Sequence record: SRR9188676_970 | Length of the DNA: 42,607 nucleotides | Strand: one strand, 5' to 3' | Program-made: the position numbers and the translations under genes | The notes under the pieces: model-generated | The model's database searches: none | What the model saw: the letters and a program-made list of their open reading frames with translations, nothing else | What the model was told of the DNA's origin: nothing | In this document: piece by piece, positions 10,003 through 36,071 of the stretch | How positions within the stretch are numbered: the first letter of the stretch is position 1 | Layout: every line of letters starts with the position of its first letter

Positions 10003-11268
10003 TTACTTGAAAGAGTCAAAACTTCGCTCTTTTCTGATGACCAAATTCAGCCAATACAATACTCCGACGAAAATAATAATTTCAAAAGCGTATTCTAAGG
10101 TGAAACGTATTTCAGCAAAATCTTTAAATTGAAGGAAAGGTTTGCCCGTTCTGAACCATAAAGAAGGTTGAAAAGAAGCGACAAATTGTATGAAAAAAGT
10201 AATGATTAAGAATTTTTTATCTTTAAAAAAATTAAAGCCGAAAAGTAAAGGCATTGCATAGATGAAAATATAATTGGCATAAGAACCAATTTGAATAATC
10301 ATCATCAAACCAAAAATTACTATCCAGATTTTTGGTACAAATTGCTGAATATTTAAATTCTTACTTAAATACGTTTGCCATAAAGCAAAAGAAAGAATGA
10401 CGAAAAGCCCAAGCCAATTCAGAAGTTTGATATTATTAGTAAGATTTAATGACCAAATAAAAGGATTAGCAATCGACCAGAAATTAGGTGCCATCGGTTC
10501 TTGAGCAAGGCGAATAGGCATCAAGAAAGAAGTACCACCATAGTAAAATAAAAAGATAAGTACTGGCAAACCAACGATGCAATTACCAATGATAAATTTT
10601 ATTTTATTATTGACTTTCAGAAATACCAAAGGAATAAATAAAACAAAAAAGGCTTTGGTGGTTAATAAACCTAAACCTGTGATGATGCCTAATATCAAAT
10701 CAGATTTTTTTCTTTGCCAACAATAAATCATCAAACAAGCGAAGCCCCACATCCAAATATCTTCTTGCCCACCAATAATACAAAAAACAAAAGGAGCTGG
10801 CAAGAGTAAGTAAATTAATGCTTTAAATAAATCAGAAGCTTGGTTTTTGGAAGAGAAAGTATTTAACGTAAGCCATAGAGTCAATAATTCTACTAAAACC
10901 ATTGTTAAAGTTACAGCTTCGGAAGTATCCCAAATATATAATAACAAAGCAGTAATATATGGAAAGAATGGAGAGTACAAGGATTCAAAATCTTTGTAAA
11001 CCAATTTGAATTTACTGGCTTCTTGTGCTGATTTCCAGAAAATATAAACATCAGATTGTGCCTTTAGATGAAGTACAATATAAATGATAACAAATGGAAT
11101 TATCCTAAACAAGACTGATATTAGCAGGAAAGATTTTAATTTTCCCAGATTACTAAAAAGTTGTTCTAGCGTTGTTCTGAATTTGAACGATAAGAAAGCA
11201 AGAAAGCAAAGTCCTGAGGCGATTAGTACTTTAAGGTAAACAATTCCATAAGTAGAGATGTCCATCAT
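10003..11268 (-). CDS. Polytopic membrane protein, probable GT-C fold glycosyltransferase (GT87-like)
   Basis: About 11-12 hydrophobic segments; acidic loop QSDVYIF, YxxF...Y-x-P, GQED motif, later TK. Confidence 0.55.
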   Translation of the reverse strand: MMDISTYGIVYLKVLIASGLCFLAFLSFKFRTTLEQLFSNLGKLKSFLLISVLFRIIPFVIIYIVLHLKAQSDVYIFWKSAQEASKFKLVYKDFESLYSPFFPYITALLLYIWDTSEAVTLTMVLVELLTLWLTLNTFSSKNQASDLFKALIYLLLPAPFVFCIIGGQEDIWMWGFACLMIYCWQRKKSDLILGIITGLGLLTTKAFFVLFIPLVFLKVNNKIKFIIGNCIVGLPVLIFLFYYGGTSFLMPIRLAQEPMAPNFWSIANPFIWSLNLTNNIKLLNWLGLFVILSFALWQTYLSKNLNIQQFVPKIWIVIFGLMMIIQIGSYANYIFIYAMPLLFGFNFFKDKKFLIITFFIQFVASFQPSLWFRTGKPFLQFKDFAEIRFTLEYAFEIIIFVGVLYWLNLVIRKERSFDSFK

Positions 11269-13446: not shown

Positions 13447-15204
13447 TTACTTAAAATTCAGGAAAGTATAAAAATAATCTTTATCAGCTTTGGGAATTTG
13501 TTTTAATGCTGTGTTTTTATAAGTAGGATTGGTTGTTTCCCAAGCGTCTGGAGTGATGTGTATTTCTTGATAAACACCATCTACATTGGCTCTGAGCCAT
13601 ACTTCAGTTGGTTCGACACCTTCGGTTCTCCAACACATAGCCTCTAGTTTTTTCTTTCCTACTTTTGTACGGCAAGGTAGAATATTTGGTGAATTTGCCC
13701 ATTCTACAGCCTTATGTTTAACCCAATGAACATGGTCGTAACTTTGTTCGGTTTCCCAATATTGAGGAACCATGTCAAGATAAGCATCAGCACCACCATT
13801 TGTCATTAACATTTTTATTCCTGCAAAAAAACCAATGTAAGTATCATGTACTTTATTATCAATAAATGAATTTTTATCCCATTGATGTAAATCAACATTA
13901 TTCATGTAATTGATTGTAACAATATCAAAAGCATAGTGTCTTCCTGCCATTCTGCCTCTATGTCCCATTACTGCATCTGGAACAATATTCCCATTAGCTA
14001 ATTTTACATAAGGATTTAAGCCTATTGGACCTTTATCAGCAATCACTTTGGTTAACATCTTATTTCGGCGGTTATTGAGTTTGTACCTGCAATACCATGA
14101 TTGCCATTCTAGTAAAGTACCTGCTCTGGCTAAGAAATGCTCAGTATTTCTCGTTATTCCGTATTTATTAATAATGATGCTATTTCCATTGCCTAAATCA
14201 AAATTTTCACCCTGTCTTGAAAATTCATTCGAATAAAACGAAACTTCGTTACTTGGAATAATATTGGAGTAATCAATCGGTCTTTTATTGACAACTCCCT
14301 TTGAAGGAATTGAAATAGGAGGGGTGGATGCTTGCCAATCTTCAGAGAATTTAGCTTTTCTACTGGTATAATTGCCCTCACTATCTGGATAATAGAACAT
14401 TGTATTTTCGCCAGTATCTCTATCATGGATATACCCTAAAGTATTTATTGGACCACCATAATCTGAAGAAATATCGCCTGTAGTATTTTCAGCCATGCCG
14501 ATAAGTAATGCTCTGTGAAGTTCATCACCATAATCGGCTGTTCCATCTTCTACATCAATCGCCACCAATCCTCTGTGTGATTTTCCTTTGATATTATCTC
14601 CCCAACCCATCGTAGCATCCAAAACAGTAGAACGTCCAAAATCATAAGCTCCTTCTATACCGATACTAGACAACTTTTGTCCACCAGCTAAGTTTCCCTC
14701 AAAAAATCTATGCTGATATGGAATTGTACTAATAAACTCTTGATAACTTTTACCAACTACTGGGTCGATATCGTTTTGCCAAGCTGTTCCATGTGCAATA
14801 TCATATGGCAAAATATAATCTACTCCTCTTTTGCCGTAACCGCTATAAAAGTCAGGATTTACATTTGCATTGCCCATTAAACCAACCTCCCAAGGATTAA
14901 TGTGATTATCCGTAAAAGGCTTTCCCCAAAAATTCCACCATACAGCCCATTTCGGTCTGATATAACCTTGGGCATTTGTATAGCTAGGTATTTTAAAAGT
15001 ACCAATTAGGTTCAATGGAAGTTCATTTACTTTTGTTTGGATGGCGATTTCCTTTGCTACATTACTAATTGATAAAGGAGTATTAATGATTGTTTTTGTA
15101 GGAAGTGCTAGTGTTTTTTTTGAAACATCATTAATCTTTTTATCCGATTGTTGTGCGCATGAAACAAAAGAAATGAGAAAGAATAGCGAGAATGTTTTTT
15201 TCAT
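13447..15204 (-). CDS. Hypothetical lipoprotein (~585 aa), possible TIM-barrel glycoside hydrolase-like
   Basis: Long ORF; MKKTFSLFFLISFVS-C lipoprotein signal from ATG 15204; aromatic-rich, with WAVWWN and GLVAIDVE. Confidence 0.7.
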   Translation of the reverse strand: MKKTFSLFFLISFVSCAQQSDKKINDVSKKTLALPTKTIINTPLSISNVAKEIAIQTKVNELPLNLIGTFKIPSYTNAQGYIRPKWAVWWNFWGKPFTDNHINPWEVGLMGNANVNPDFYSGYGKRGVDYILPYDIAHGTAWQNDIDPVVGKSYQEFISTIPYQHRFFEGNLAGGQKLSSIGIEGAYDFGRSTVLDATMGWGDNIKGKSHRGLVAIDVEDGTADYGDELHRALLIGMAENTTGDISSDYGGPINTLGYIHDRDTGENTMFYYPDSEGNYTSRKAKFSEDWQASTPPISIPSKGVVNKRPIDYSNIIPSNEVSFYSNEFSRQGENFDLGNGNSIIINKYGITRNTEHFLARAGTLLEWQSWYCRYKLNNRRNKMLTKVIADKGPIGLNPYVKLANGNIVPDAVMGHRGRMAGRHYAFDIVTINYMNNVDLHQWDKNSFIDNKVHDTYIGFFAGIKMLMTNGGADAYLDMVPQYWETEQSYDHVHWVKHKAVEWANSPNILPCRTKVGKKKLEAMCWRTEGVEPTEVWLRANVDGVYQEIHITPDAWETTNPTYKNTALKQIPKADKDYFYTFLNFK

Positions 15205-15388
15205 TTTTAAAGGAATTAGATTCAATTCATCACATAAATATTGAATGTCATTACAATGTAAGCTTAAATTTTACTGATAACGAACAAGAAGACAAACTAG
15301 CGCATTTTTATTAAATATTAGAAACTGATTTTCTAGAAATAAGATTTTTAAGAGAGAAAAATGACCGAAGGATTTGAAAACTGTAGTA

Positions 15389-15447: not shown

Positions 15448-15519
15448 TAGTCCGTACGGGAATCGAACCCGTGTTTCATCCGTGAAAGGGACGTGTCCTA
15501 ACCCCTAGACGAACGGACC
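15448..15519 (-). tRNA. tRNA-Glu (anticodon TTC), CCA not encoded
   Basis: Minus strand GGTCCGTTCGTCTAGGGGTTAGGACACGTCC-CTTTCAC-GGATGAAACACGGGTTCGATTCCCGTACGGACTA folds as a cloverleaf with a GGTTCGA T-arm. Confidence 0.97.
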
Positions 15520-15789: not shown

Positions 15790-17373
15790 ATGATTCAGTC
15801 AAAAATAAACTCACTAAATTCAAAGATTGCTTGGGAAAAAATCCGTGCAGACACAGAGCTTTTCGACAATTTTGAAAAAAATGTTTTACCGGCTTACATG
15901 AATACTTGTAGATGGTTTGCTGGAAAAGCCAGAATCCAAAAGGCTTTTAAAGTAACAACAGCTTTGGAAATTCCAATTGAAGAATCAATGGCATTATTGA
16001 TGATTGTTACTGTTTCTTATGAAGATGGTGAGATTGAAAATTATTTATTACCTGTTTCATTTATTGATGCTAGCCATAATAAAGATATTGCTCCAAAAGG
16101 AATCATTACTTTGGCATATATCAATAATAAAAGAGGAATTATTGTGGATGCGATTTATGATGAACGTTTTCAACAAGCTATTTTTTATCATTTAGCACAT
16201 GCAGAAAATATTGGACAAGCTAAAGGGAAAATAGATTTTACTCGTGGCAAGGGTTTTTTAGGAGAAGATATCAATGCACCGATTTCTTCAAGGGTTTTGC
16301 CAGTTGATTCTTCAAATTCTGCGATTGTTTTTGGCGATAAATATTTTTTGAAGCTTTACAGGAAATTGTTTACAGAAACCAATCCTGAAGTAGATATGGT
16401 TGAATTCATTACTGAACATTCCAATTTTGCTTTTATTCCTGCTTTTGCAGGGAGTTTGGTATGGAAAGAAGACCATAAGCCAGATATTACGCTTGGTATG
16501 ATGCAGAGAATGGTAGAAAACCAAGCAGATAGTTGGGTACAAACGGGCGAACAATTGGAAGATTTTGTTGAAGCTTTTATGGCAAAATCATTTTCAATTA
16601 AGGAAGAAGTATTTCAACAAGTAGAATTACTGGCGCAACGAACCGCTGAAATGCACTTGGCTTTGTACAATTCTGATGCAGAGAAAATGTTTGTTCCTGT
16701 AAATTTTGATGATATTTATCGCAAGTTTTTGCACGATAGATTAACCAGCCTTTTAGATAAAAGATATAATTTACTCATTGATAATTATACAAAAATCACA
16801 GATGCCGTGACCCGAAAATTAGCTTGGGATTTTATGGAAGCCAGAGAATTGATTGATGAATTTGCAGATGGAATTTTAACCAAACCAATTCTTTCTCAAA
16901 GAATCAGAATTCATGGAGATTATCATTTGGGACAAGTATTAGCCACACAAAACGATTATATAATTATTGATTTTGAAGGAGAGCCAGAAAGCTCTATTAC
17001 CGACAGGAAAATTAAACATTCTCCTTTAAAAGATGTAGCTGGAATGATTAGGAGCTATCATTATGCTATTTCAGCAAAAATGTTGAATGATGCTATTGCA
17101 TTAAAATTTGAACCTCATCGAGTACAAACGGTAGCAGACCGCTGGTATAAATTGATTCAGCAAACTTTTATGGATAAGTATTTGGATACTTTTGGGCATC
17201 CGCACCCATTGTTCAAGAATAATAATGAAATAAATTTTTTGATGTTGATTTACTTATTAGAAAAAGCCGTTTACGAATTGGGCTATGAAATTAATTATAG
17301 ACCCGATTGGGTTAAAATACCATTGAAAGGAATTGTGAATGTGATTCGTGAAATTGAGAAATTAAAAATGTAA
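15790..17373 (+). CDS. Maltokinase (Pep2/Mak type, stand-alone)
   Basis: RWFAGKAR N-cap, SSNSAIVF, FLKLYRK, NPEVDM, RIHGDYHLGQV, DFEGEP, DVAGMIRSY, EKAVYELGYE. Confidence 0.88.
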   Translation: MIQSKINSLNSKIAWEKIRADTELFDNFEKNVLPAYMNTCRWFAGKARIQKAFKVTTALEIPIEESMALLMIVTVSYEDGEIENYLLPVSFIDASHNKDIAPKGIITLAYINNKRGIIVDAIYDERFQQAIFYHLAHAENIGQAKGKIDFTRGKGFLGEDINAPISSRVLPVDSSNSAIVFGDKYFLKLYRKLFTETNPEVDMVEFITEHSNFAFIPAFAGSLVWKEDHKPDITLGMMQRMVENQADSWVQTGEQLEDFVEAFMAKSFSIKEEVFQQVELLAQRTAEMHLALYNSDAEKMFVPVNFDDIYRKFLHDRLTSLLDKRYNLLIDNYTKITDAVTRKLAWDFMEARELIDEFADGILTKPILSQRIRIHGDYHLGQVLATQNDYIIIDFEGEPESSITDRKIKHSPLKDVAGMIRSYHYAISAKMLNDAIALKFEPHRVQTVADRWYKLIQQTFMDKYLDTFGHPHPLFKNNNEINFLMLIYLLEKAVYELGYEINYRPDWVKIPLKGIVNVIREIEKLKM

Positions 17374-18516: not shown

Positions 18517-19188
18517 ATGCAAAATCAAAGTGAAATAAAACTTCTTGCTGAAGCTCCTTGGCATTTAACAGGGAATGCTTACGCTATGATTTATAAGTTT
18601 CCGAAAGAGTTTGTTATTGGAAATGGATTTATGGAAGATTTTCAAAAAAGTAGATTTCTAGGATATTTTGGAACAGTAATGTTAGTCGATTACCAATCTT
18701 CAAATGTTGGTAAATATCAAGAATTACTTTTTATTCCTGGTATGTTTACTTTTGATTGGGCAAAAGTATTTTCAATCAGTAAAATATATGTTTCTTCTGA
18801 TGAAAGTGTTTTAAACGGAAGAAAAAATTGGGGAATTCCAAAAGAAAAAGCTGATTTTGAATGGTCAAATGAAGCAGATGGTAAAACAAGTGTAAAGGTA
18901 AGGTTAGATAATAAAATTATTTTTGAGGCAAAATTTAATAAAAACTTTTTGTCTATTCCATTAAAAAATAACTGGTTCACTTTTAAATTGGCTCAAAAAT
19001 CAGAGAATAATTTAATGATTACTCCTTTTAGTTTTAATGGAAAAATTAAACTTTCAAAAGTTAATAAAGTATTGGTTGATGGAACTCACTTTCCTGATGT
19101 TTCACGGTTATCACCATTATTAACTATTCAAGTAAGTAATTTTAAGATGAACTTTGAGGCTGCAAAGATGAAAGAAAATTATTTTTGA
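18517..19188 (+). CDS. Acetoacetate decarboxylase-family protein
   Basis: APWHLTG, VDYQSSNVGKYQEL, IYVS, GRKNWGIPK (Schiff-base Lys position); ATG 18517 preferred over TTG 18496. Confidence 0.75.
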   Translation: MQNQSEIKLLAEAPWHLTGNAYAMIYKFPKEFVIGNGFMEDFQKSRFLGYFGTVMLVDYQSSNVGKYQELLFIPGMFTFDWAKVFSISKIYVSSDESVLNGRKNWGIPKEKADFEWSNEADGKTSVKVRLDNKIIFEAKFNKNFLSIPLKNNWFTFKLAQKSENNLMITPFSFNGKIKLSKVNKVLVDGTHFPDVSRLSPLLTIQVSNFKMNFEAAKMKENYF

Positions 19189-19229
19189 TAATACTTATTG
19201 GTTTTATCTAATAAATAATCCCTGAAATT

Positions 19230-19260
19230 TTTGTTGATTGTAAAATGAGTTATATATTTG
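19230..19260 (+). promoter_or_regulatory. Consensus Bacteroidota promoter with no downstream CDS
   Basis: TTTG (19230-19233), 19-nt spacer, TATATTTG (19253-19260). Confidence 0.7.
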
Positions 19261-19264
19261 TTAA

Positions 19265-19585
19265 AGAGATTATTAATCAAGTTATGGTTGACAATTAAGA
19301 GCAGTTAATATTCTCTATACTTGTACTTAATAACATTCCGCCAAGTGTTAGGATAAGATAAGAAAAAGCTTATATCATTTTGATAGCTTTATTGATTTCT
19401 TCTTTTATAGAATCCTCTCAACTTGCGGTCTCAATCTAACATTACGAACAATTAATTTTCTGTGATTTACTTATAAAGTATTTCATCTAAAAATACGAGA
19501 AAAAATATTGGGCTATGCCCTAAAGATTACTACTTAGGCGGATTGTGTAAAGACTCGGAGCAATGCATCGAGTCTTTATTTTTTT
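19265..19585 (+). ncRNA. Candidate ~320-nt structured ncRNA (RNA-A)
   Basis: Promoter upstream; 5' stem 19265-19276/19305-19316; hairpin taacatt-CCGCCA-agtgtta (19331-19350); long-range pairing 19333-19346/19532-19546; terminator at the end; only tiny ATG-initiated ORFs seen. Confidence 0.55.
19548..19585 (+). terminator. Intrinsic terminator of RNA-A
   Basis: taaagactcg / cgagtcttta followed by T7. Confidence 0.8.
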
Positions 19586-19820
19586 ATAAATTTCACAACC
19601 ACTAATAGACTTATTGATGAAAATTTGATTAAGAAATCTAAATTAAAAGACACTTAAATCATCATATTTTTTCGCTCAAACAACAAATTCTTAAAATTCA
19701 CATCAAAATTTTAGCTTGGAATGGCTAAATTCTTACTTCGTGTAATTCTTGTAAAAATCATAGCATTTTAAATACAACATCGGTGGATTTGTGTTAATTT
19801 TACTTAATCAAATAACAAAA

Positions 19821-19885
19821 TTATGGCGGTAATTTACTATTTGATTACTACAGTAATATTTTTAGATTCTATTTTATGGCGGTAA
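19821..19885 (+). repeat. 12-bp direct repeat TTATGGCGGTAA, two copies
   Basis: Copies at 19821-19832 and 19874-19885. Confidence 0.85.
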
Positions 19886-19950
19886 AAAAGAGTTCTAAAA
19901 TATTATTTACAGACAAGTAAATTTATTTTATTTGTTGTATGATGATTTTG

Positions 19951-19991
19951 AAAAGACCCTTGAATTGGCGGATTCATAGGTCTTTTTTTTT
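19951..19991 (+). terminator. Intrinsic terminator with a TGGCGG loop
   Basis: aaaagacc-ct-tgaat-TGGCGG-attca-ta-ggtctttt, T run to 19991. Confidence 0.75.
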
Positions 19992-20004
19992 GTTTATACT
20001 CTAT

Positions 20005-20045
20005 AAAAAAAAGGGATGATACTTTCTTTCGTATCATCCCTTTTT
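20005..20045 (-). terminator. Intrinsic terminator of glgB
   Basis: aaaaagggatgatac / gtatcatcccttttt, with U8 on the minus strand. Confidence 0.85.
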
Positions 20046-20048
20046 AGG

Positions 20049-22067
20049 TTATTTAACTTTAAGAATACTTGCTCCGAGTGGAGGTATCGTTAAAGAAATG
20101 GAATAGGCTTTTCCTTGCCAAGCAATTTCTTCAGCCATAATTACTGATTTATTGGTTTTCCCGCTTCCTCCGAAATGGTGTTCATCGGAGTTCAAAACTT
20201 CATTCCAAATTCCTTGCATTGGTACGCCAATTCTATAATTATCTCTAGGAACTGGCGTCATATTCAAGATAATGATAAGCTGTTCTTTATTGACATTTCC
20301 TTTTCTTGCATATACAACAACTGAATTATCTCTATCAGAAGTATCAATCCATTCAAAACCTTCATGTGAGAATTGCTTTTCGTATAAAGCAGGCTCTGTT
20401 TTGTATAAATTATTTAGTGCTTTCATAAGGTTTTGGATACCTATATGCGGGGCATGATCTAATAACCACCAATCTAATCCTTTTTCAAAATTCCATTCAG
20501 ATGTTTGTCCGAACTCTCCACCCATAAAAATCAGATTTGTACCTGGGTGAGTAAACATGTATGAAAAGAGGAGCCTTAAATTCGCAAACCTTTGCCATTC
20601 ATCACCTGGCATTTTTCCTATTAAAGATTTTTTGCCATAAACAATCTCATCATGAGAAAGCGGAAGCATAAAATTTTCGGTGAATGCGTAAACCGTAGAG
20701 AATGTTAATTGGTCTTGATGATGACGACGATACATTGGGTCTCTTTGGAAGTAATTTAATGTATCATTCATCCATCCCATCATCCATTTCTGACCAAAGC
20801 CTAAACCTCCAGCATAAATCGGTCTTGAAACGCCCGTAAATGAAGTAGATTCTTCTGCGATAATTTGAATATCTGGAAACTGAGAGTAAATCGTTTCATT
20901 CAATTCTTTGAAAAGAGAAATGGCTTCAAGGTTGTGATTTCCCCCAAAAATATTAGGTTCCCACTCACCATGTTTTCTTGAATAATCTAAATAAAGCATT
21001 GAAGCAACAGCATCAACTCTTAAACCATCAGCATGGTAGCGTTCTAACCAATAAATTGCATTAGAAATCAAAAAGCTACGCACTTCGTTTCTACCATAAT
21101 TGAAAATATAAGATTTCCAATCTGGATGATAGCCTCTACGCATATCTGGGTGTTCGAATAAATGAGTTCCATCGTATTCGTATAACCCGTGTGCATCGCC
21201 CGGAAAATGAGAAGGAACCCAGTCGAGTAATACTCCAATATCGTTTTTATGGCATTCTTCTACCAAATACATGAAATCCTGAGGTGTTCCAAAGCGAGAC
21301 GAAGGAGCAAAATATCCAAGTACTTGGTAACCCCACGAAGGCTCATAAGGGTGTTCCATAATTGGCATGAATTCGATGTGCGTGAAGCCCATTTCTTTTA
21401 CATAATTCACCAATTGGTCTGCTAATTCTACGAAGGTAAGTTTTTCATTTCCTTCTTTTCTTCTCCAAGAACCCACATGTACTTCATAAACAGACATCGG
21501 TGAAGTCAAAGAGTTTTTTGTATGACGCTTTGCCATCCAGTCTGAATCTGTCCATTCATACCAGTTGTCCCAAACTACAGAAGCGGTGCGTGGAGGTGTT
21601 TCAAAGTGTTGGGCATAAGGGTCCATTTTTTCAATAAAACGGTTATCCTGAGTTTGGATACAGAATTTGTAGGTTTCTCCTTTACCAATGTAAGGAATAA
21701 AGCCTTCCCAAATACCTGAAGCATCCCAACGTACAAATAAATGATGGCTACCTTTATCCCAATAGTTAAAATTCCCGATGACAGATACTGATTTTGCTGA
21801 AGGAGCCCAAACTGCAAAATAGACACCTTGTACGCCCTGACATTCTGTAATGTGTGAGCCAAACTTTTCAAATAATCGGTAATGTTTTCCAGCTTTAAAG
21901 AGATCAATGTCGAAATCAGAAAAACGACTGAATACTTCTACATTTTTAAGAATTACTGGAGCACTTGGAGTCTGAATTACTTCTGGTACTTCTACAACTT
22001 CTTTTTTACTTACTTTTTTCTTAGTTGTTTCGGTTGGTTGAGTAGTTGTTTTGGACGTTTTTGCCAT
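20049..22067 (-). CDS. glgB: 1,4-alpha-glucan branching enzyme (GH13_9)
   Basis: FAVWAP, YEVHVGSW, SWGYQ, DWVPSHF, LRVDAVASM, IAEEST, LSHDE. Confidence 0.96.
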   Translation of the reverse strand: MAKTSKTTTQPTETTKKKVSKKEVVEVPEVIQTPSAPVILKNVEVFSRFSDFDIDLFKAGKHYRLFEKFGSHITECQGVQGVYFAVWAPSAKSVSVIGNFNYWDKGSHHLFVRWDASGIWEGFIPYIGKGETYKFCIQTQDNRFIEKMDPYAQHFETPPRTASVVWDNWYEWTDSDWMAKRHTKNSLTSPMSVYEVHVGSWRRKEGNEKLTFVELADQLVNYVKEMGFTHIEFMPIMEHPYEPSWGYQVLGYFAPSSRFGTPQDFMYLVEECHKNDIGVLLDWVPSHFPGDAHGLYEYDGTHLFEHPDMRRGYHPDWKSYIFNYGRNEVRSFLISNAIYWLERYHADGLRVDAVASMLYLDYSRKHGEWEPNIFGGNHNLEAISLFKELNETIYSQFPDIQIIAEESTSFTGVSRPIYAGGLGFGQKWMMGWMNDTLNYFQRDPMYRRHHQDQLTFSTVYAFTENFMLPLSHDEIVYGKKSLIGKMPGDEWQRFANLRLLFSYMFTHPGTNLIFMGGEFGQTSEWNFEKGLDWWLLDHAPHIGIQNLMKALNNLYKTEPALYEKQFSHEGFEWIDTSDRDNSVVVYARKGNVNKEQLIIILNMTPVPRDNYRIGVPMQGIWNEVLNSDEHHFGGSGKTNKSVIMAEEIAWQGKAYSISLTIPPLGASILKVK

Positions 22068-26969: not shown

Positions 26970-28928
26970 CTAAATATCTTCAATTCTAAATAAGTGCATT
27001 GGCATAATGTGTGGATCTAAATCAATGAAGTTGTATTCGCCACGCCAAACATATTTTGCACCAGTAATCAAATCATGAACGATATATTCTTGGTCAGGAT
27101 GTTTATGAATTAAATGCAAGGGAATTCTTACATTTCCTCCCTGACGATTGTGAGGGTCAAGATTAACGGCGCATAAAATCTTATTTCCGTTTGAATGCGT
27201 TTTCAAATAAGCCAATACTTGGTCATTCTGAATATCACAGAAAGTAATATTATTGGTTCTTTGTAAAGCTGAATTTTCAATCCTCGCTTCATTGGTTTTA
27301 CGGATAACATGGGTTAGTTTATTTTCCATTTGCCAATCCCAATGTCTTATTTCGTATTTCTCAGAATTTTTGTACTCTTCTTTATTAGGATTTCCTTCGT
27401 TAATCATGTATTCATAAACAGGTCCGAAAATTCCATAGTTAGACGAAAGTGTAGCTGCCATGAAGTAACGAATAATAAACATTGGCTCAAGCCCTGTTTG
27501 TAAGCACCAAGGAAGAATATCATGCGTATTTGACCAGAAGTTTGGACGCATATATAAAGCTTGTTCGGTTTTGGTCAATTCATTCATGTAGCCAATTAAT
27601 TCCGCCTTTGTATTTCGCCAAGTATAATAAGTATAAGAATGTGTATAGCCCAATTTAGCTAATTGTGCCATTACTTTAGGTTTTGTAAATGCCTCAGCCA
27701 AGAAAATCATGTCAGGATACACAGTTTGTACTTCGGCAATAACCCATTCCCAAAATCCAAAAGCTTTAGTGTGTGGATTATCAACACGAATAATTCTGAT
27801 TCCCCATTCAGCCCAAGTCATAATTACCGTTTTCAATTCTTCCCAAAGTCCTTGCCAATTTTCAGACTCAAAATTGATTGGATAAATATCTTGGTACTTT
27901 TTCGGAGGATTTTCAGCATACTGAATTGTTCCATCAGGGCGAATCTTGAACCATTCTGGATGTTCTTTTGCCCAAGGATGGTCGGGAGAACATTGAATCG
28001 CCAAATCCAAAGCCAATTCAATTCCCATTTCGTTACAAGTAGCAATTAAATGTTTTAGGTCATCTAATGTTCCTAATTCTGGTAAAATAGCGGTATGTCC
28101 ACCTAGTTCTGAGCCAATTCCATAAGGTACTCCCGGTTCGTCCTCTTCACAAGTGGTACTGTTGTTTTTCCCTTTTCTGAATTGCTTACCGATTGGATGA
28201 ATTGGCGGAATATATAAAACATCAAAACCTAATGATTTTAAACGAGGAAGTACATTTTCTTCGACATCTTTAAATGTTCCGTGCTGTCCTTTTTTAGAGG
28301 AGGCAGAACGTGGAAACATTGAGTACCAAGACGAGAATGCTGCTTTTTCTCTATCAACCCAAAGTTTTAGTTCTTTATGAGTAGCTATAAACTGTTTATC
28401 TGGATATTGTTCAATCCAATGGTGCATTTTTTCACTATGAGTAAATGCGATGGCTTCGTTGTAAGTATTTTTGTCTCTGAAAATTTTTGCAGTAGCTTTC
28501 AATTCAGTTTTATCTTCTTTTGAAGCTATTTTAGCCATTTTGTCAAGAATGTTAGCACCCATCAAAAGTTCAACATTGACTATTTGACCATCCTTGATTT
28601 TCATATCAATTTCATGTTCCCAAGTAGCAGCATGATCAACCCATGCTTCAATCGTGTAAGTATAAAAACCATTTTTAGTAACTTCAAAAGATGCCTCATA
28701 TCGGTCATTATTGACGAAACTCATTTTTTTCTCAGTCCAAGCTTCATCAGTTGAAAACTTGTAAAGTAATCTTGCGCTTAATTGGTCATGTCCATCCAAG
28801 AAAATATCAGCTTCAACCTTGATAGTATCGCCTATAAAAGCTTTTACAGCAAAGCGTCCTGCATCTAGTTGTGGACTAACATTTTCAATGATTACCCTTT
28901 GTTGTCCTTGAATTGTTTTTGAAATCAT
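26970..28928 (-). CDS. glgE: Alpha-1,4-glucan:maltose-1-phosphate maltosyltransferase (GH13_3)
   Basis: DGHD, WYSMFPRS, PPIHPIG..RKGKNN, QCSPDHP, YAENPPKKYQDI, RVDNPHTK, LAEAFT, NTHDIL, SEKYE. Confidence 0.95.
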   Translation of the reverse strand: MISKTIQGQQRVIIENVSPQLDAGRFAVKAFIGDTIKVEADIFLDGHDQLSARLLYKFSTDEAWTEKKMSFVNNDRYEASFEVTKNGFYTYTIEAWVDHAATWEHEIDMKIKDGQIVNVELLMGANILDKMAKIASKEDKTELKATAKIFRDKNTYNEAIAFTHSEKMHHWIEQYPDKQFIATHKELKLWVDREKAAFSSWYSMFPRSASSKKGQHGTFKDVEENVLPRLKSLGFDVLYIPPIHPIGKQFRKGKNNSTTCEEDEPGVPYGIGSELGGHTAILPELGTLDDLKHLIATCNEMGIELALDLAIQCSPDHPWAKEHPEWFKIRPDGTIQYAENPPKKYQDIYPINFESENWQGLWEELKTVIMTWAEWGIRIIRVDNPHTKAFGFWEWVIAEVQTVYPDMIFLAEAFTKPKVMAQLAKLGYTHSYTYYTWRNTKAELIGYMNELTKTEQALYMRPNFWSNTHDILPWCLQTGLEPMFIIRYFMAATLSSNYGIFGPVYEYMINEGNPNKEEYKNSEKYEIRHWDWQMENKLTHVIRKTNEARIENSALQRTNNITFCDIQNDQVLAYLKTHSNGNKILCAVNLDPHNRQGGNVRIPLHLIHKHPDQEYIVHDLITGAKYVWRGEYNFIDLDPHIMPMHLFRIEDI

Positions 28929-34904: not shown

Positions 34905-36071
34905 ATGAAAAAAATCAGAAGACTCATCTTTCTCCAAGACGTTCTGATTCTTGCTTGTACTTCTTTTGGAGGACCACAAGTACATTTGGCAATGTTTATT
35001 GACCGTTTTGTAAAGAAAAGAAATTATCTCACAGAAGCTGAATTACTTGAACTTCAAGCATTATGTGGATTTCTTCCCGGACCTACTTCTACACAAACAA
35101 TTACTGCATTAGGTTACAAAATCGGTGGGCCAAATTTAGCATATCTGACTTTACTTGTTTGGATTACTCCAGCGGTTACAGTAATGACTGCCGCCGCTTT
35201 TGGAATGACTTATCTTCAGAATAGAAATATCATTAGGTTTATACAACCGATAGGAGTTGCCTTTATTATTCATGCAGGTTTTGTATTAGGACATAAAGTT
35301 ATTAAAAATGTTTCTGGAATAATTTTGATGATACTTGCCGCTGGCTTTGCATTCTATTTTCAGTCACCATGGGTTTTTCCTATCTCATTGATAATTGGAG
35401 GGACATTTACAGCATTCAATTATAAAGATTATCCCCATCAAACAAAACATAAAATGGTTATTCCTTGGGCTAACTTTAATTTGTTTTGGATTTTTTTATT
35501 GTGTTTAGCATTACTTGGGCATTTTACAGATTATGAACCCATTCGATTATTTGAAAACTTTTATCGAAATGGTAGTTTAGTTTTTGGCGGAGGACAAGTA
35601 CTAGCACCAATTCTTTATACTGAATTTGTAGAATTTAAAGAATTAGTAAGGGCTGATGATTTTTTGACTGGGATGGCACTTTCCCAAGCCTTGCCGGGGC
35701 CAGTTTTTGCATTTACTTCTTATTTAGGAACTTTAGTAATGAAAGAAGGCACTTGGTGGGAACAATTATTAGGAAGTGCTGTTGGGGCTGCAGGTATTTT
35801 TTTGCCGGGGACTTTTTTGATATTTTTTGTGTATAGAATCTGGGGACAACTAAAACAATACAGGGGAATTAGAGCTTCATTAGACGGAATAAATGCCACT
35901 TCGATTGGATTGACTTTAGCAGCAGCCGTCACTTTCATTGTTCCAATGGTCAAGCAAGTAGATATTGTTGGTATAGTAACCGTAATTGCTACGTTTTTAA
36001 TCTTACAATTTACCAAAATACCAAGCTTTTTTATTTTCTTGGGGGGATTGATATTGGGCTTTATCTTCTGA
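34905..36071 (+). CDS. chrA: Chromate efflux transporter (long-chain CHR family)
   Basis: SFGGP, LPGPTSTQ, duplicated VFGGG and QALPGP, IFLPG. Confidence 0.88.
   Translation: MKKIRRLIFLQDVLILACTSFGGPQVHLAMFIDRFVKKRNYLTEAELLELQALCGFLPGPTSTQTITALGYKIGGPNLAYLTLLVWITPAVTVMTAAAFGMTYLQNRNIIRFIQPIGVAFIIHAGFVLGHKVIKNVSGIILMILAAGFAFYFQSPWVFPISLIIGGTFTAFNYKDYPHQTKHKMVIPWANFNLFWIFLLCLALLGHFTDYEPIRLFENFYRNGSLVFGGGQVLAPILYTEFVEFKELVRADDFLTGMALSQALPGPVFAFTSYLGTLVMKEGTWWEQLLGSAVGAAGIFLPGTFLIFFVYRIWGQLKQYRGIRASLDGINATSIGLTLAAAVTFIVPMVKQVDIVGIVTVIATFLILQFTKIPSFFIFLGGLILGFIF

Follow-up and report, generated by a model that had tools for sequence, protein, structure and literature searches.

In ColE1 RNA I/RNA II and other plasmid antisense pairs, recognition begins when several complementary hairpin loops kiss at once, each loop pairing along its entire length; the partners are transcribed from opposite strands, are complementary throughout, and control plasmid replication. 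Two exactly complementary 6-nt loops, those of TAR and TAR*, pair at all six positions, and CsrB and RsmZ, which carry many hairpins with the same loop motif, are protein sponges. Here we analyze an intergenic spacer in a stretch of DNA from sequence record SRR9188676_970 (42,607 nt in all; we refer to the whole stretch as the window) that encodes two neighboring small RNAs (sRNAs), RNA-A and RNA-B, whose hairpins carry exactly complementary hexaloops, CCGCCA and UGGCGG, respectively. Both units lie on the same (plus) chromosomal strand and are complementary in their loops only, which separates them from the cis-antisense kissing pairs (ColE1 RNA I/RNA II, CopA/CopT). They also differ from CsrB and RsmZ: the loop motif is other than GGA, a search of five genomes did not find CsrA, and a complementary RNA is present. 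TAR* is the engineered partner of a viral hairpin, unlike the natural bacterial pair that we propose.

In Staphylococcus aureus, hairpins H7, H13, and H14 of RNAIII make at least two loop-loop contacts with the rot and coa mRNAs, free of Hfq (PMC8383071). RNAIII resembles the RNAs described here in that several stable hairpins of one RNA show the same GC-rich loop motif (PMC8383071). It differs in that its partner, as described there, is an mRNA that is contacted over the ribosome-binding site (PMC8383071), whereas here the partner would be a second, adjoining non-coding RNA; moreover, the loops here are UGGCGG/CCGCCA hexaloops, the host belongs to the Bacteroidota, and there is no sequence or Rfam relation. 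The same source describes sponges and other sRNA-sRNA pairs (SroC or AgvB with GcvB, 3'ETS-leuZ with RyhB/RybB, RbsZ with RybB, and RsaI with RsaG/RsaD/RsaE) and states that sponges may have their own promoters (PMC8383071). Those pairs share with our proposal the principle of titration by a non-coding RNA that base-pairs with the seed of a second one, but known sponges use single-stranded, usually single sites and mostly depend on Hfq or ProQ. Here, the proposed pairing sites are preformed hexaloops that are repeated on both partners, the genes are neighbors, and a search of five genomes did not find Hfq. None of the systems compared combines, as this one does, trans-encoded non-coding neighbors, repeated preformed hexaloops, complementarity restricted to the loops, and a host lineage in which Hfq was not found.

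From the sequence evidence set out below, we estimate a probability of about 0.5 that RNA-A and RNA-B act as an sRNA and its antagonist through kissing loops that require no chaperone. The locus defines three new RNA families, namely a GGCGG-seed sRNA (in 8 of the 44 family genera sampled), RNA-B, and the CCGCCA-hairpin RNAs, and this set of families would come with a new variant of sRNA-sRNA antagonism, the pairing itself being predicted. The three families are suitable for RNA family libraries. To our knowledge, the small-RNA biology of Bacteroidota beyond gut Bacteroides is almost unknown. Searches of the open-access literature, supplements aside, turned up no work on small RNAs in Arcicella, Flectobacillus, or Spirosomataceae and none on kissing or sponge RNAs in Bacteroidota, and Rfam gave no match to either RNA, in keeping with the statement of an earlier sequence-only reading of this DNA that it knew of no described system with such a layout.

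Two structured RNA genes read from one strand

The two plus-strand RNA genes lie about 220 nt apart and occupy the spacer (19189-20048; 860 nt, GC 0.263) between two housekeeping genes, one with an acetoacetate-decarboxylase-like (ADC-like) domain and the other glgB-like (Table 1). The CCGCCA loop of RNA-A is the exact complement of the three TGGCGG loops of RNA-B. The positions that the sequence-only reading had given for these four loops were all correct when rechecked, and its 8-nt complement between TCCGCCAA (19337-19344) and TTGGCGGA (19965-19972) also holds. The word GGCGGATT, which it had noticed at both 3' ends, is present at 19537-19544 and 19967-19974, and its first copy contributes a fourth GGCGG of the spacer, at 19537.

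TGGCGG and CCGCCA together occur 13 times in the 42.6 kb window, and the copies directly closed by a stem are the four in the spacer, with closing stems of 5-7 pairs, and one weak case at 35585. This last copy (TGGCGG, 35585-35590) lies inside a chromate-transporter gene and has a weak 5-pair stem that rests on G.U pairs; it is probably a chance occurrence. The spacer contains five copies of GGCGG/CCGCC, and none of 5000 dinucleotide-preserving shuffles reached five (mean 0.098, maximum 2), which bears out the earlier remark that such GC-rich words stand out in this AT-rich interval.

Table 1. Positions of the RNA genes, their signals, and the features that border them
Feature	Position	Strand	Description
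RNA-A	~19268-19588	+	~320 nt; predicted 5' end; composite of hairpin H1 and 3' "S" module
RNA-A promoter	19230-19260	+	-33 TTTG/TTG 19230-19236; -7 TATATTTG 19253-19260
Hairpin H1	19331-19350	+	Predicted fold; stem 19331-19337/19344-19350, hexaloop CCGCCA 19338-19343
Small S-module hairpin	19510-19520	+	Predicted fold; GGGC-UAU-GCCC; start of S module
17-mer ACUACUUAGGCGGAUUG	19529-19545	+	Contains GGCGG; presumed seed; unpaired when S module is folded alone
RNA-A intrinsic terminator	19547-19588	+	Stem 19547-19579, then U-tract
RNA-B	~19808-19991	+	~185 nt; predicted 5' end; three hairpins, each with a UGGCGG hexaloop
RNA-B upstream box	19740-19763	+	GTGTAATTCTTG(T/A)AAAAAT(C/T)ATA; ~80 nt before first RNA-B loop
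RNA-B -7 box	19795-19802	+	TAATTTTA in window, TAATTTTG in most relatives; TAATTTT(A/G)
RNA-B hairpin 1	19818-19835	+	Loop UGGCGG 19824-19829
RNA-B hairpin 2	19852-19907	+	Long stem; loop UGGCGG 19877-19882; fold z = -5.36
RNA-B terminator hairpin	19950-19991	+	Hairpin 19950-19987; loop UGGCGG 19966-19971; U-tract 19983-19991; fold z = -4.56
ADC-like domain gene	ends 19188	+	5' border of spacer
glgB-like gene	20049-22067	-	3' end at 20049; 3' border of spacer
glgB terminator hairpin	20008-20045		15 pairs, A-runs/T-runs at sides, just beyond glgB stop; outside RNA system
Sigma-54-like boxes (relatives)	L088 and L044/L068/L080: ~330 nt upstream of 17-mer; L011: 850-870, 1020-1040 (oriented)

The structure of RNA-B is strongly conserved. 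When 18 RNA-B sequences (Arcicella, Pseudarcicella, and one metagenome-assembled genome [MAG]) were aligned, 93.7% of the cells at paired positions could pair, compared with 36-53% when the partners were slid, and 29 of the 42 pairs showed changes on both sides; none of 500 column shuffles attained any of five measures. Compensatory changes were found at 14/17 pairs of the outer helix of hairpin 2 and at 7/11 pairs of the terminator hairpin, and A-U closes hairpin 1 in 17 of the sequences, G-C in the remaining one. The fold of the whole RNA has a z-score of -5.65. All three UGGCGG loops are invariant in the aligned sequences, and in Pseudarcicella and the MAG the terminator stems are rewritten around an unchanged loop. 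Prediction leaves these loops open, except that a U.G pair may close them, and the folding program prefers a GGCG tetraloop closed by U.G.

Upstream of RNA-B, the TAATTTT of the -7 box is invariant in 19/19 aligned sequences, and distant congeners have a TTTG 19 nt upstream of it. The upstream box stands at the same relative place in Arcicella and Pseudarcicella, and in a variant form in Flectobacillus; we presume that it binds a regulator. It also has an inverted TAATT..AATTA core in these three genera.

RNA-A is composite. Its promoter boxes, which we take to be of the Bacteroidota sigma-A type from the TAnnTTTG/TTTG consensus of the Bacteroides promoter literature, are the best-conserved upstream columns in an alignment of five sequences from the species group of the window. 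The loop of H1 is fixed in 17 distinct homologous sequences, in which the closing pair is U-A, U.G, or C-G and other stem positions vary as well. The 3' S module has a fold z-score of -2.78 and opens with a small hairpin that is GGG/CCC, GAG/CUC, or GGGU/ACCC at the same place in other species. The 17-mer that follows is identical in 21/21 aligned sequences, and the terminator shows the compensatory change CUCGG/CCGAG to CUUGG/CCAAG, together with G.U pairs that the opposite strand would turn into A.C. The 3' GGCGG module is, on its distribution among relatives (see below), an older sRNA to which the H1 portion is joined.

To follow these elements beyond the window, we scanned one genome per species with the 17-mer and the start of the terminator as the query and recovered 92 stretches, from Arcicella, Flectobacillus, Aquirufa, Pseudarcicella, Sandaracinomonas, and freshwater Cytophagales MAGs. 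Over all loci, the UGGCGG hairpins occur in 68 distinct contexts, with closing pairs A-U in 34, U-A in 17, and G-C in 17, and the CCGCCA hairpins occur in 53 distinct contexts with 35 different 5-bp stems. Counted on the strand of the 17-mer, the ratio of G.U to A.C in the stems is 23:4 for the UGGCGG hairpins and 39:0 for the CCGCCA hairpins. These ratios rule out that all of the hairpins are one element in two orientations, and the excess of G.U in both types, with which the U-tracts and promoter boxes agree, indicates that the complementarity is real at the RNA level. The assignment of both units to the plus strand, made earlier from the U-tails and G-U pairs, was upheld by the same signs. 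Both RNAs are thus structured RNA genes read off one strand.

The hexamers are tied to hairpins at this locus. Within the locus, 71/122 CCGCCA and 80/138 TGGCGG copies are in hairpins, compared with 4/52 and 0/23, respectively, in the 317 kb that flank it in the same records. These figures, and the structure around the loops, bear on the proposal that the hairpins are structural or terminator-like elements with no role in trans, whose GC-rich loops are just stable caps. One of the three UGGCGG loops does lie in a terminator, and a U.G-closed GGCG tetraloop is what the folding program favors. However, each RNA has a promoter of its own, a conserved box lies upstream of RNA-B, the stems are rewritten across four genera around loops that do not change, and the hexamers are scarcely ever hairpin-borne elsewhere. 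We consider a purely structural role extremely unlikely.

RNA-library contigs, compared over 18900-20300, give neither strand nor ends, and carry-over of DNA is possible. Libraries X13 and X14 have contigs at 19275-19534 (RNA-A) and 19818-20011 (RNA-B); as their figures are identical, the two may represent a single data set. X15, which belongs to another study, has contigs at 19276-19505 (RNA-A) and 19829-19970 (RNA-B), and X16 has pieces of RNA-A as well as pieces of the RNA-A 3' module of a relative. The two RNAs therefore fall on separate contigs in at least two studies, with starts at 19275 and 19276, and this gives a hint of expression. The segment 19585-19817 has no contig, which is not evidence of absence.

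Distribution and island layout in relatives

In a BLAST search of 41 related genomes, the spacer matched 22/25 genomes of the same genus and 0/16 from other families. The conserved islands are H1, the RNA-A 3' module, and the promoter, hairpins, and terminator of RNA-B. The locus is syntenic, with pyrF upstream and glgB adjoining. The 17-mer, with at most one mismatch allowed, is present in 28/151 family genomes and 8/44 genera; it is single-copy in 27 of these 28 genomes, the exception (G089) having a second copy with one mismatch, and RNA-B has one match in G001, the nearest genome used. A near single-copy sequence at a syntenic place does not have the character of a mobile or repeat element such as a miniature inverted-repeat transposable element (MITE) or a repetitive extragenic palindrome (REP).

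Most other Arcicella have a bigger island with 3-5 CCGCCA and 5-6 UGGCGG hairpins, in the order UGGCGG RNA, H1, extra CCGCCA unit, 17-mer module, RNA-B. The upstream UGGCGG RNA has two or three hairpins and a terminator of its own; three CCGCCA hairpins, an unpaired UUUUCCGCCAAG, and a terminator-like hairpin make up the extra CCGCCA unit. The lineage of the window (loci L001-L006) lacks both of these units, which border the retained H1, one on each side. An apparent inversion of the upstream UGGCGG unit in L109 was rejected, as the CCGCC copies in question fall within a gene.

A covariance model of RNA-B hairpins 1 and 2 (R1) matched 14/151 family genomes (g1, 9/9; g20, 2/6; one each in g25, g53, and g46, the last weakly) and 0/141 genomes from 21 other families sampled in the order. 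Flectobacillus longus gave a weak R1 match, yet its sequence clearly shows an RNA with UGGCGG in three loops, located 2 kb downstream of the 17-mer and adjoining the 3' end of glgB. A search of Aquirufa with R1 gave no match. There, the 17-mer module forms a short stand-alone sRNA (about 105 nt) that has a TAnnTTTG box to itself and follows pyrF and a gene for a small membrane protein; the module is also downstream of pyrF in the window. The GGCGG-seed RNA is thus the oldest part of the system, with RNA-B and the CCGCCA hairpins confined to the Arcicella/Pseudarcicella/Flectobacillus branch. Short CCGCC words do occur near the Aquirufa sRNA. In one group (L042, L053, L056, and 11 more), CCGCC is found 95 nt upstream of the seed GGCGG, where we rejected it as an RNA hairpin because it sits in the sRNA promoter spacer; in another (L022, L033, and 9 more), it stands right after the terminator, 45 nt downstream of the seed GGCGG.

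The two hairpin types occur together. At least one CCGCCA hairpin lies upstream of the 17-mer in 23 of the 92 loci, and all 18 of those with at least 650 nt of downstream flank have an R1 match; 17 of these 18 carry three exact UGGCGG hairpins, and one carries two and a variant. An exact CCGCCA hairpin is missing from the other 69 loci, and a set of three UGGCGG hairpins is present in just three of them: two from Flectobacillus, in which the C-loops are variant, and L021, whose upstream end is cut; the remaining 66 have no such set. Co-conservation, the absence of which the sequence-only reading had named as a refutation of its idea, is therefore found wherever the flank is long enough to judge (18/18).

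The promoters of the two RNAs differ. Before the H1 unit, Pseudarcicella, Flectobacillus, and most Arcicella have TGGCA(C/T)-N5-TTG(C/T/A), which looks like a sigma-54 promoter by its sequence; in the group of the window, this box is replaced by a sigma-A-type promoter. A second sigma-54-like box, TGGCA(C/T)GAAACTTGAC, stands after the upstream UGGCGG RNA and before a tiny hairpin-terminated RNA, and is absent from the group of the window.

We found no phage relative of the RNAs among viral contigs. The sole 17-mer match there falls in a coding region, and 20 matches to a double TATGGCGGTA pattern proved to be coding Tyr-Gly-Gly repeats or an unrelated tandem repeat. One viral contig (L129, 4780-4960) has a tandem repeat of about 42 nt with ATGGCGGTAA, whose flanks and structure are unrelated to RNA-B.

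Predicted pairing of RNA-A with RNA-B and its alternatives

We propose that the spacer encodes two independently transcribed, Hfq-independent sRNAs, and that the CCGCCA loop or loops of RNA-A would kiss the UGGCGG loops of RNA-B by direct loop-loop pairing. The contact would comprise six G/C-rich base pairs, or eight with the terminator loop of RNA-B, and one RNA would titrate the other, as regulator and antagonist or sponge. The output would be set by the RNA-A:RNA-B ratio under separate control, through the upstream box for RNA-B and the sigma-54-like or (in the group of the window) sigma-A-type promoter for RNA-A. Pairing is the simplest account of the data because the complementary hexaloops are repeated, borne on stems, on the same strand, side by side, and gained or lost together. 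Complementary sites of the kind found in sponge pairs are present, with CCGCCA facing three copies of UGGCGG and 8 nt matching at the terminator loop; the calculated duplex energies are -9.9 kcal/mol for 6 bp and -12.8 kcal/mol for the 8-nt match of H1 with the terminator loop. The CCGCCA loop fits UGGCGG and UUGGCGGA better than it fits the seed context AGGCGGA, so that the contact between RNA-A and RNA-B, rather than pairing between loop and seed, seems to be tailored. The pairing of TAR with TAR* indicates that the proposed geometry is physically possible.

Hfq (PF17209) was found in 0/5 genomes from four genera, whereas all five control genomes were detected, which sets the pair apart from the Hfq-dependent class of trans-acting sRNAs. 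CsrA (PF02599) was likewise found in 0/5 of these genomes, with the E. coli, B. subtilis, and T. maritima controls detected. The absence of both proteins from the search results fits a fast, chaperone-free pairing of preformed GC-rich loops.

Several observations weigh against the proposed pairing. Compensatory covariation between the CCGCCA and UGGCGG loops was not found in relatives; the loops are nearly invariant, and covariation therefore cannot support the pairing. Where C-loops do vary, RNA-B has not followed: Flectobacillus longus, F. roseus, and F. rivi have C-loops CCGCA(CA) and CCGCUA and retain UGGCGG three times. CCGCUA can still pair by way of G.U, and CCGCA gives only 4 bp. One Arcicella species (L020) has single decayed loops on both RNAs, namely UAGCGA, CCACCA, and CCGUCA, with no matching changes in the partner. 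In the minimum-energy fold of full-length RNA-A (19268-19588), 19338-19342 pairs with 19537-19541 and has an unpaired probability of about 0, so that the CCGCCA loop may be occupied in cis by the GGCGG of the same RNA. The seed module stands alone in Aquirufa, which implies that GGCGG has partners other than RNA-A, and the co-occurrence counts reflect few independent evolutionary events because the species are related. Finally, the contigs from RNA libraries fall short of proof for transcription and for the transcript ends. What stands of the two-RNA system suggested by the sequence-only reading is a set of two separate, structured, neighboring, co-conserved RNAs on the plus strand, with loops fixed over varying stems; the covariation of loops that it had looked to in related genomes did not appear.

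The main competing account is that the RNAs are independent regulators, in which the UGGCGG loops (together with the GGCGG seed) and the CCGCCA loops seed separate mRNA targets and their complementarity arises incidentally, for example because related sites are regulated in opposite directions. The GGCGG seed module without any CCGCCA- or UGGCGG-hairpin RNA in Aquirufa and Sandaracinomonas speaks for it, as does the retention of UGGCGG in Flectobacillus despite the drifted C-loops. We nonetheless think it unlikely: an exact reverse-complement hexamer is expected by chance about once in 4096 per register, and adjacency, shared multiplicity, and joint loss would be left unexplained. Nor did the seed point to such targets, since a search of five genomes for its 15-nt complement with up to two mismatches gave no more sites than a reversed-pattern control, the sole exact match being the sRNA gene itself. 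A second account places the interaction within RNA-A, where the CCGCC of H1 would mask the molecule's own GGCGG seed, and RNA-B would be a mere paralogous GGCGG RNA or would unmask the seed by loop competition. The minimum-energy fold given above allows this, and the RNA-library contig 19275-19534 covers both elements. However, the covariation of H1 (closing pairs U-A, U.G, and C-G) favors a local hairpin, the loop matches UGGCGG and UUGGCGGA better than AGGCGGA, and in most Arcicella a terminator-like hairpin separates the CCGCCA units from the S module; such a switch in cis is in our judgment quite improbable.

The hexaloops might instead titrate one RNA-binding protein common to both RNAs, or two, in the manner of CsrB/RsmZ. 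Repeated identical loops on stable hairpins are the architecture of a protein sponge, and the loops are conserved more strictly than pairing alone would need. The search for CsrA bears on that protein and not on others, but membership of the CsrB/RsmZ class is also at odds with the loops themselves, as two of the three in RNA-B (loops 1 and 2, with UGGCGG flanked by U) have no GGA, and a decoy leaves the exact complement on a second RNA unexplained. We regard a protein decoy as very improbable. An antitoxin-like pair, another possibility raised at the outset, was not borne out. No ORF (open reading frame) of at least 40 amino acids was found on the plus strand of the spacer, a 16-codon ORF at 19724-19774 was rejected as coding because it is not conserved in relatives, and the conserved blocks of the spacer vary by indels that are not multiples of three. 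As the spacer thus has no conserved ORF, and no adjoining conserved toxin ORF, for a small hydrophobic peptide or an endoribonuclease, of the kind that marks type I or type III toxin-antitoxin loci was found in it, an antitoxin-like pair is unlikely.

If RNA-A and RNA-B pair as we propose, they would provide a clean natural case of chaperone-free sRNA-sRNA control through multivalent kissing of trans-encoded RNAs. An extended form of the proposal, which we consider distinctly unlikely, is a multivalent chaperone-free docking system in the Arcicella clade, contained in one island. One or two RNAs bearing as many as five CCGCCA hexaloops would then face two other RNAs with five or six UGGCGG hexaloops, and this multivalency on both sides could let the RNAs cross-link into assemblies of higher order. 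Alternatively, titration through the same loops could act as a very steep switch between promoters under different regulation, sigma-54-like for the C-loop RNAs in most species and with the conserved upstream box for RNA-B. Either outcome, if true, would give designed kissing-loop RNA scaffolds a natural counterpart in bacteria.

Neighboring genes and source lineage

In a search of the whole window with Rfam 15 at gathering score, the single match was a tRNA (15448-15519), with none for RNA-A or RNA-B; at E ≤10, the region 19100-20150 gave 19 matches, all far under their gathering scores, and five related loci gave tRNA only. Two large ORFs in the window, at 10003-11268 (421 aa) and 13447-15225 (592 aa), have no Pfam match at E ≤1e-5. 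The spacing of the motifs is the same in the Arcicella rosea and A. lustrica loci as in the window, which suggests that the window comes from an Arcicella-like organism (a freshwater Arcicella-type bacterium).

RNA-B is tail to tail with glgB in Arcicella, Pseudarcicella, and Flectobacillus, and the hairpin beyond the glgB stop codon looks like a two-way terminator between them. Genes of the GlgE alpha-glucan pathway lie around the RNA locus, at 15790-17373 (maltokinase-like), 20049-22067 (glgB), and 26970-28928 (glgE).

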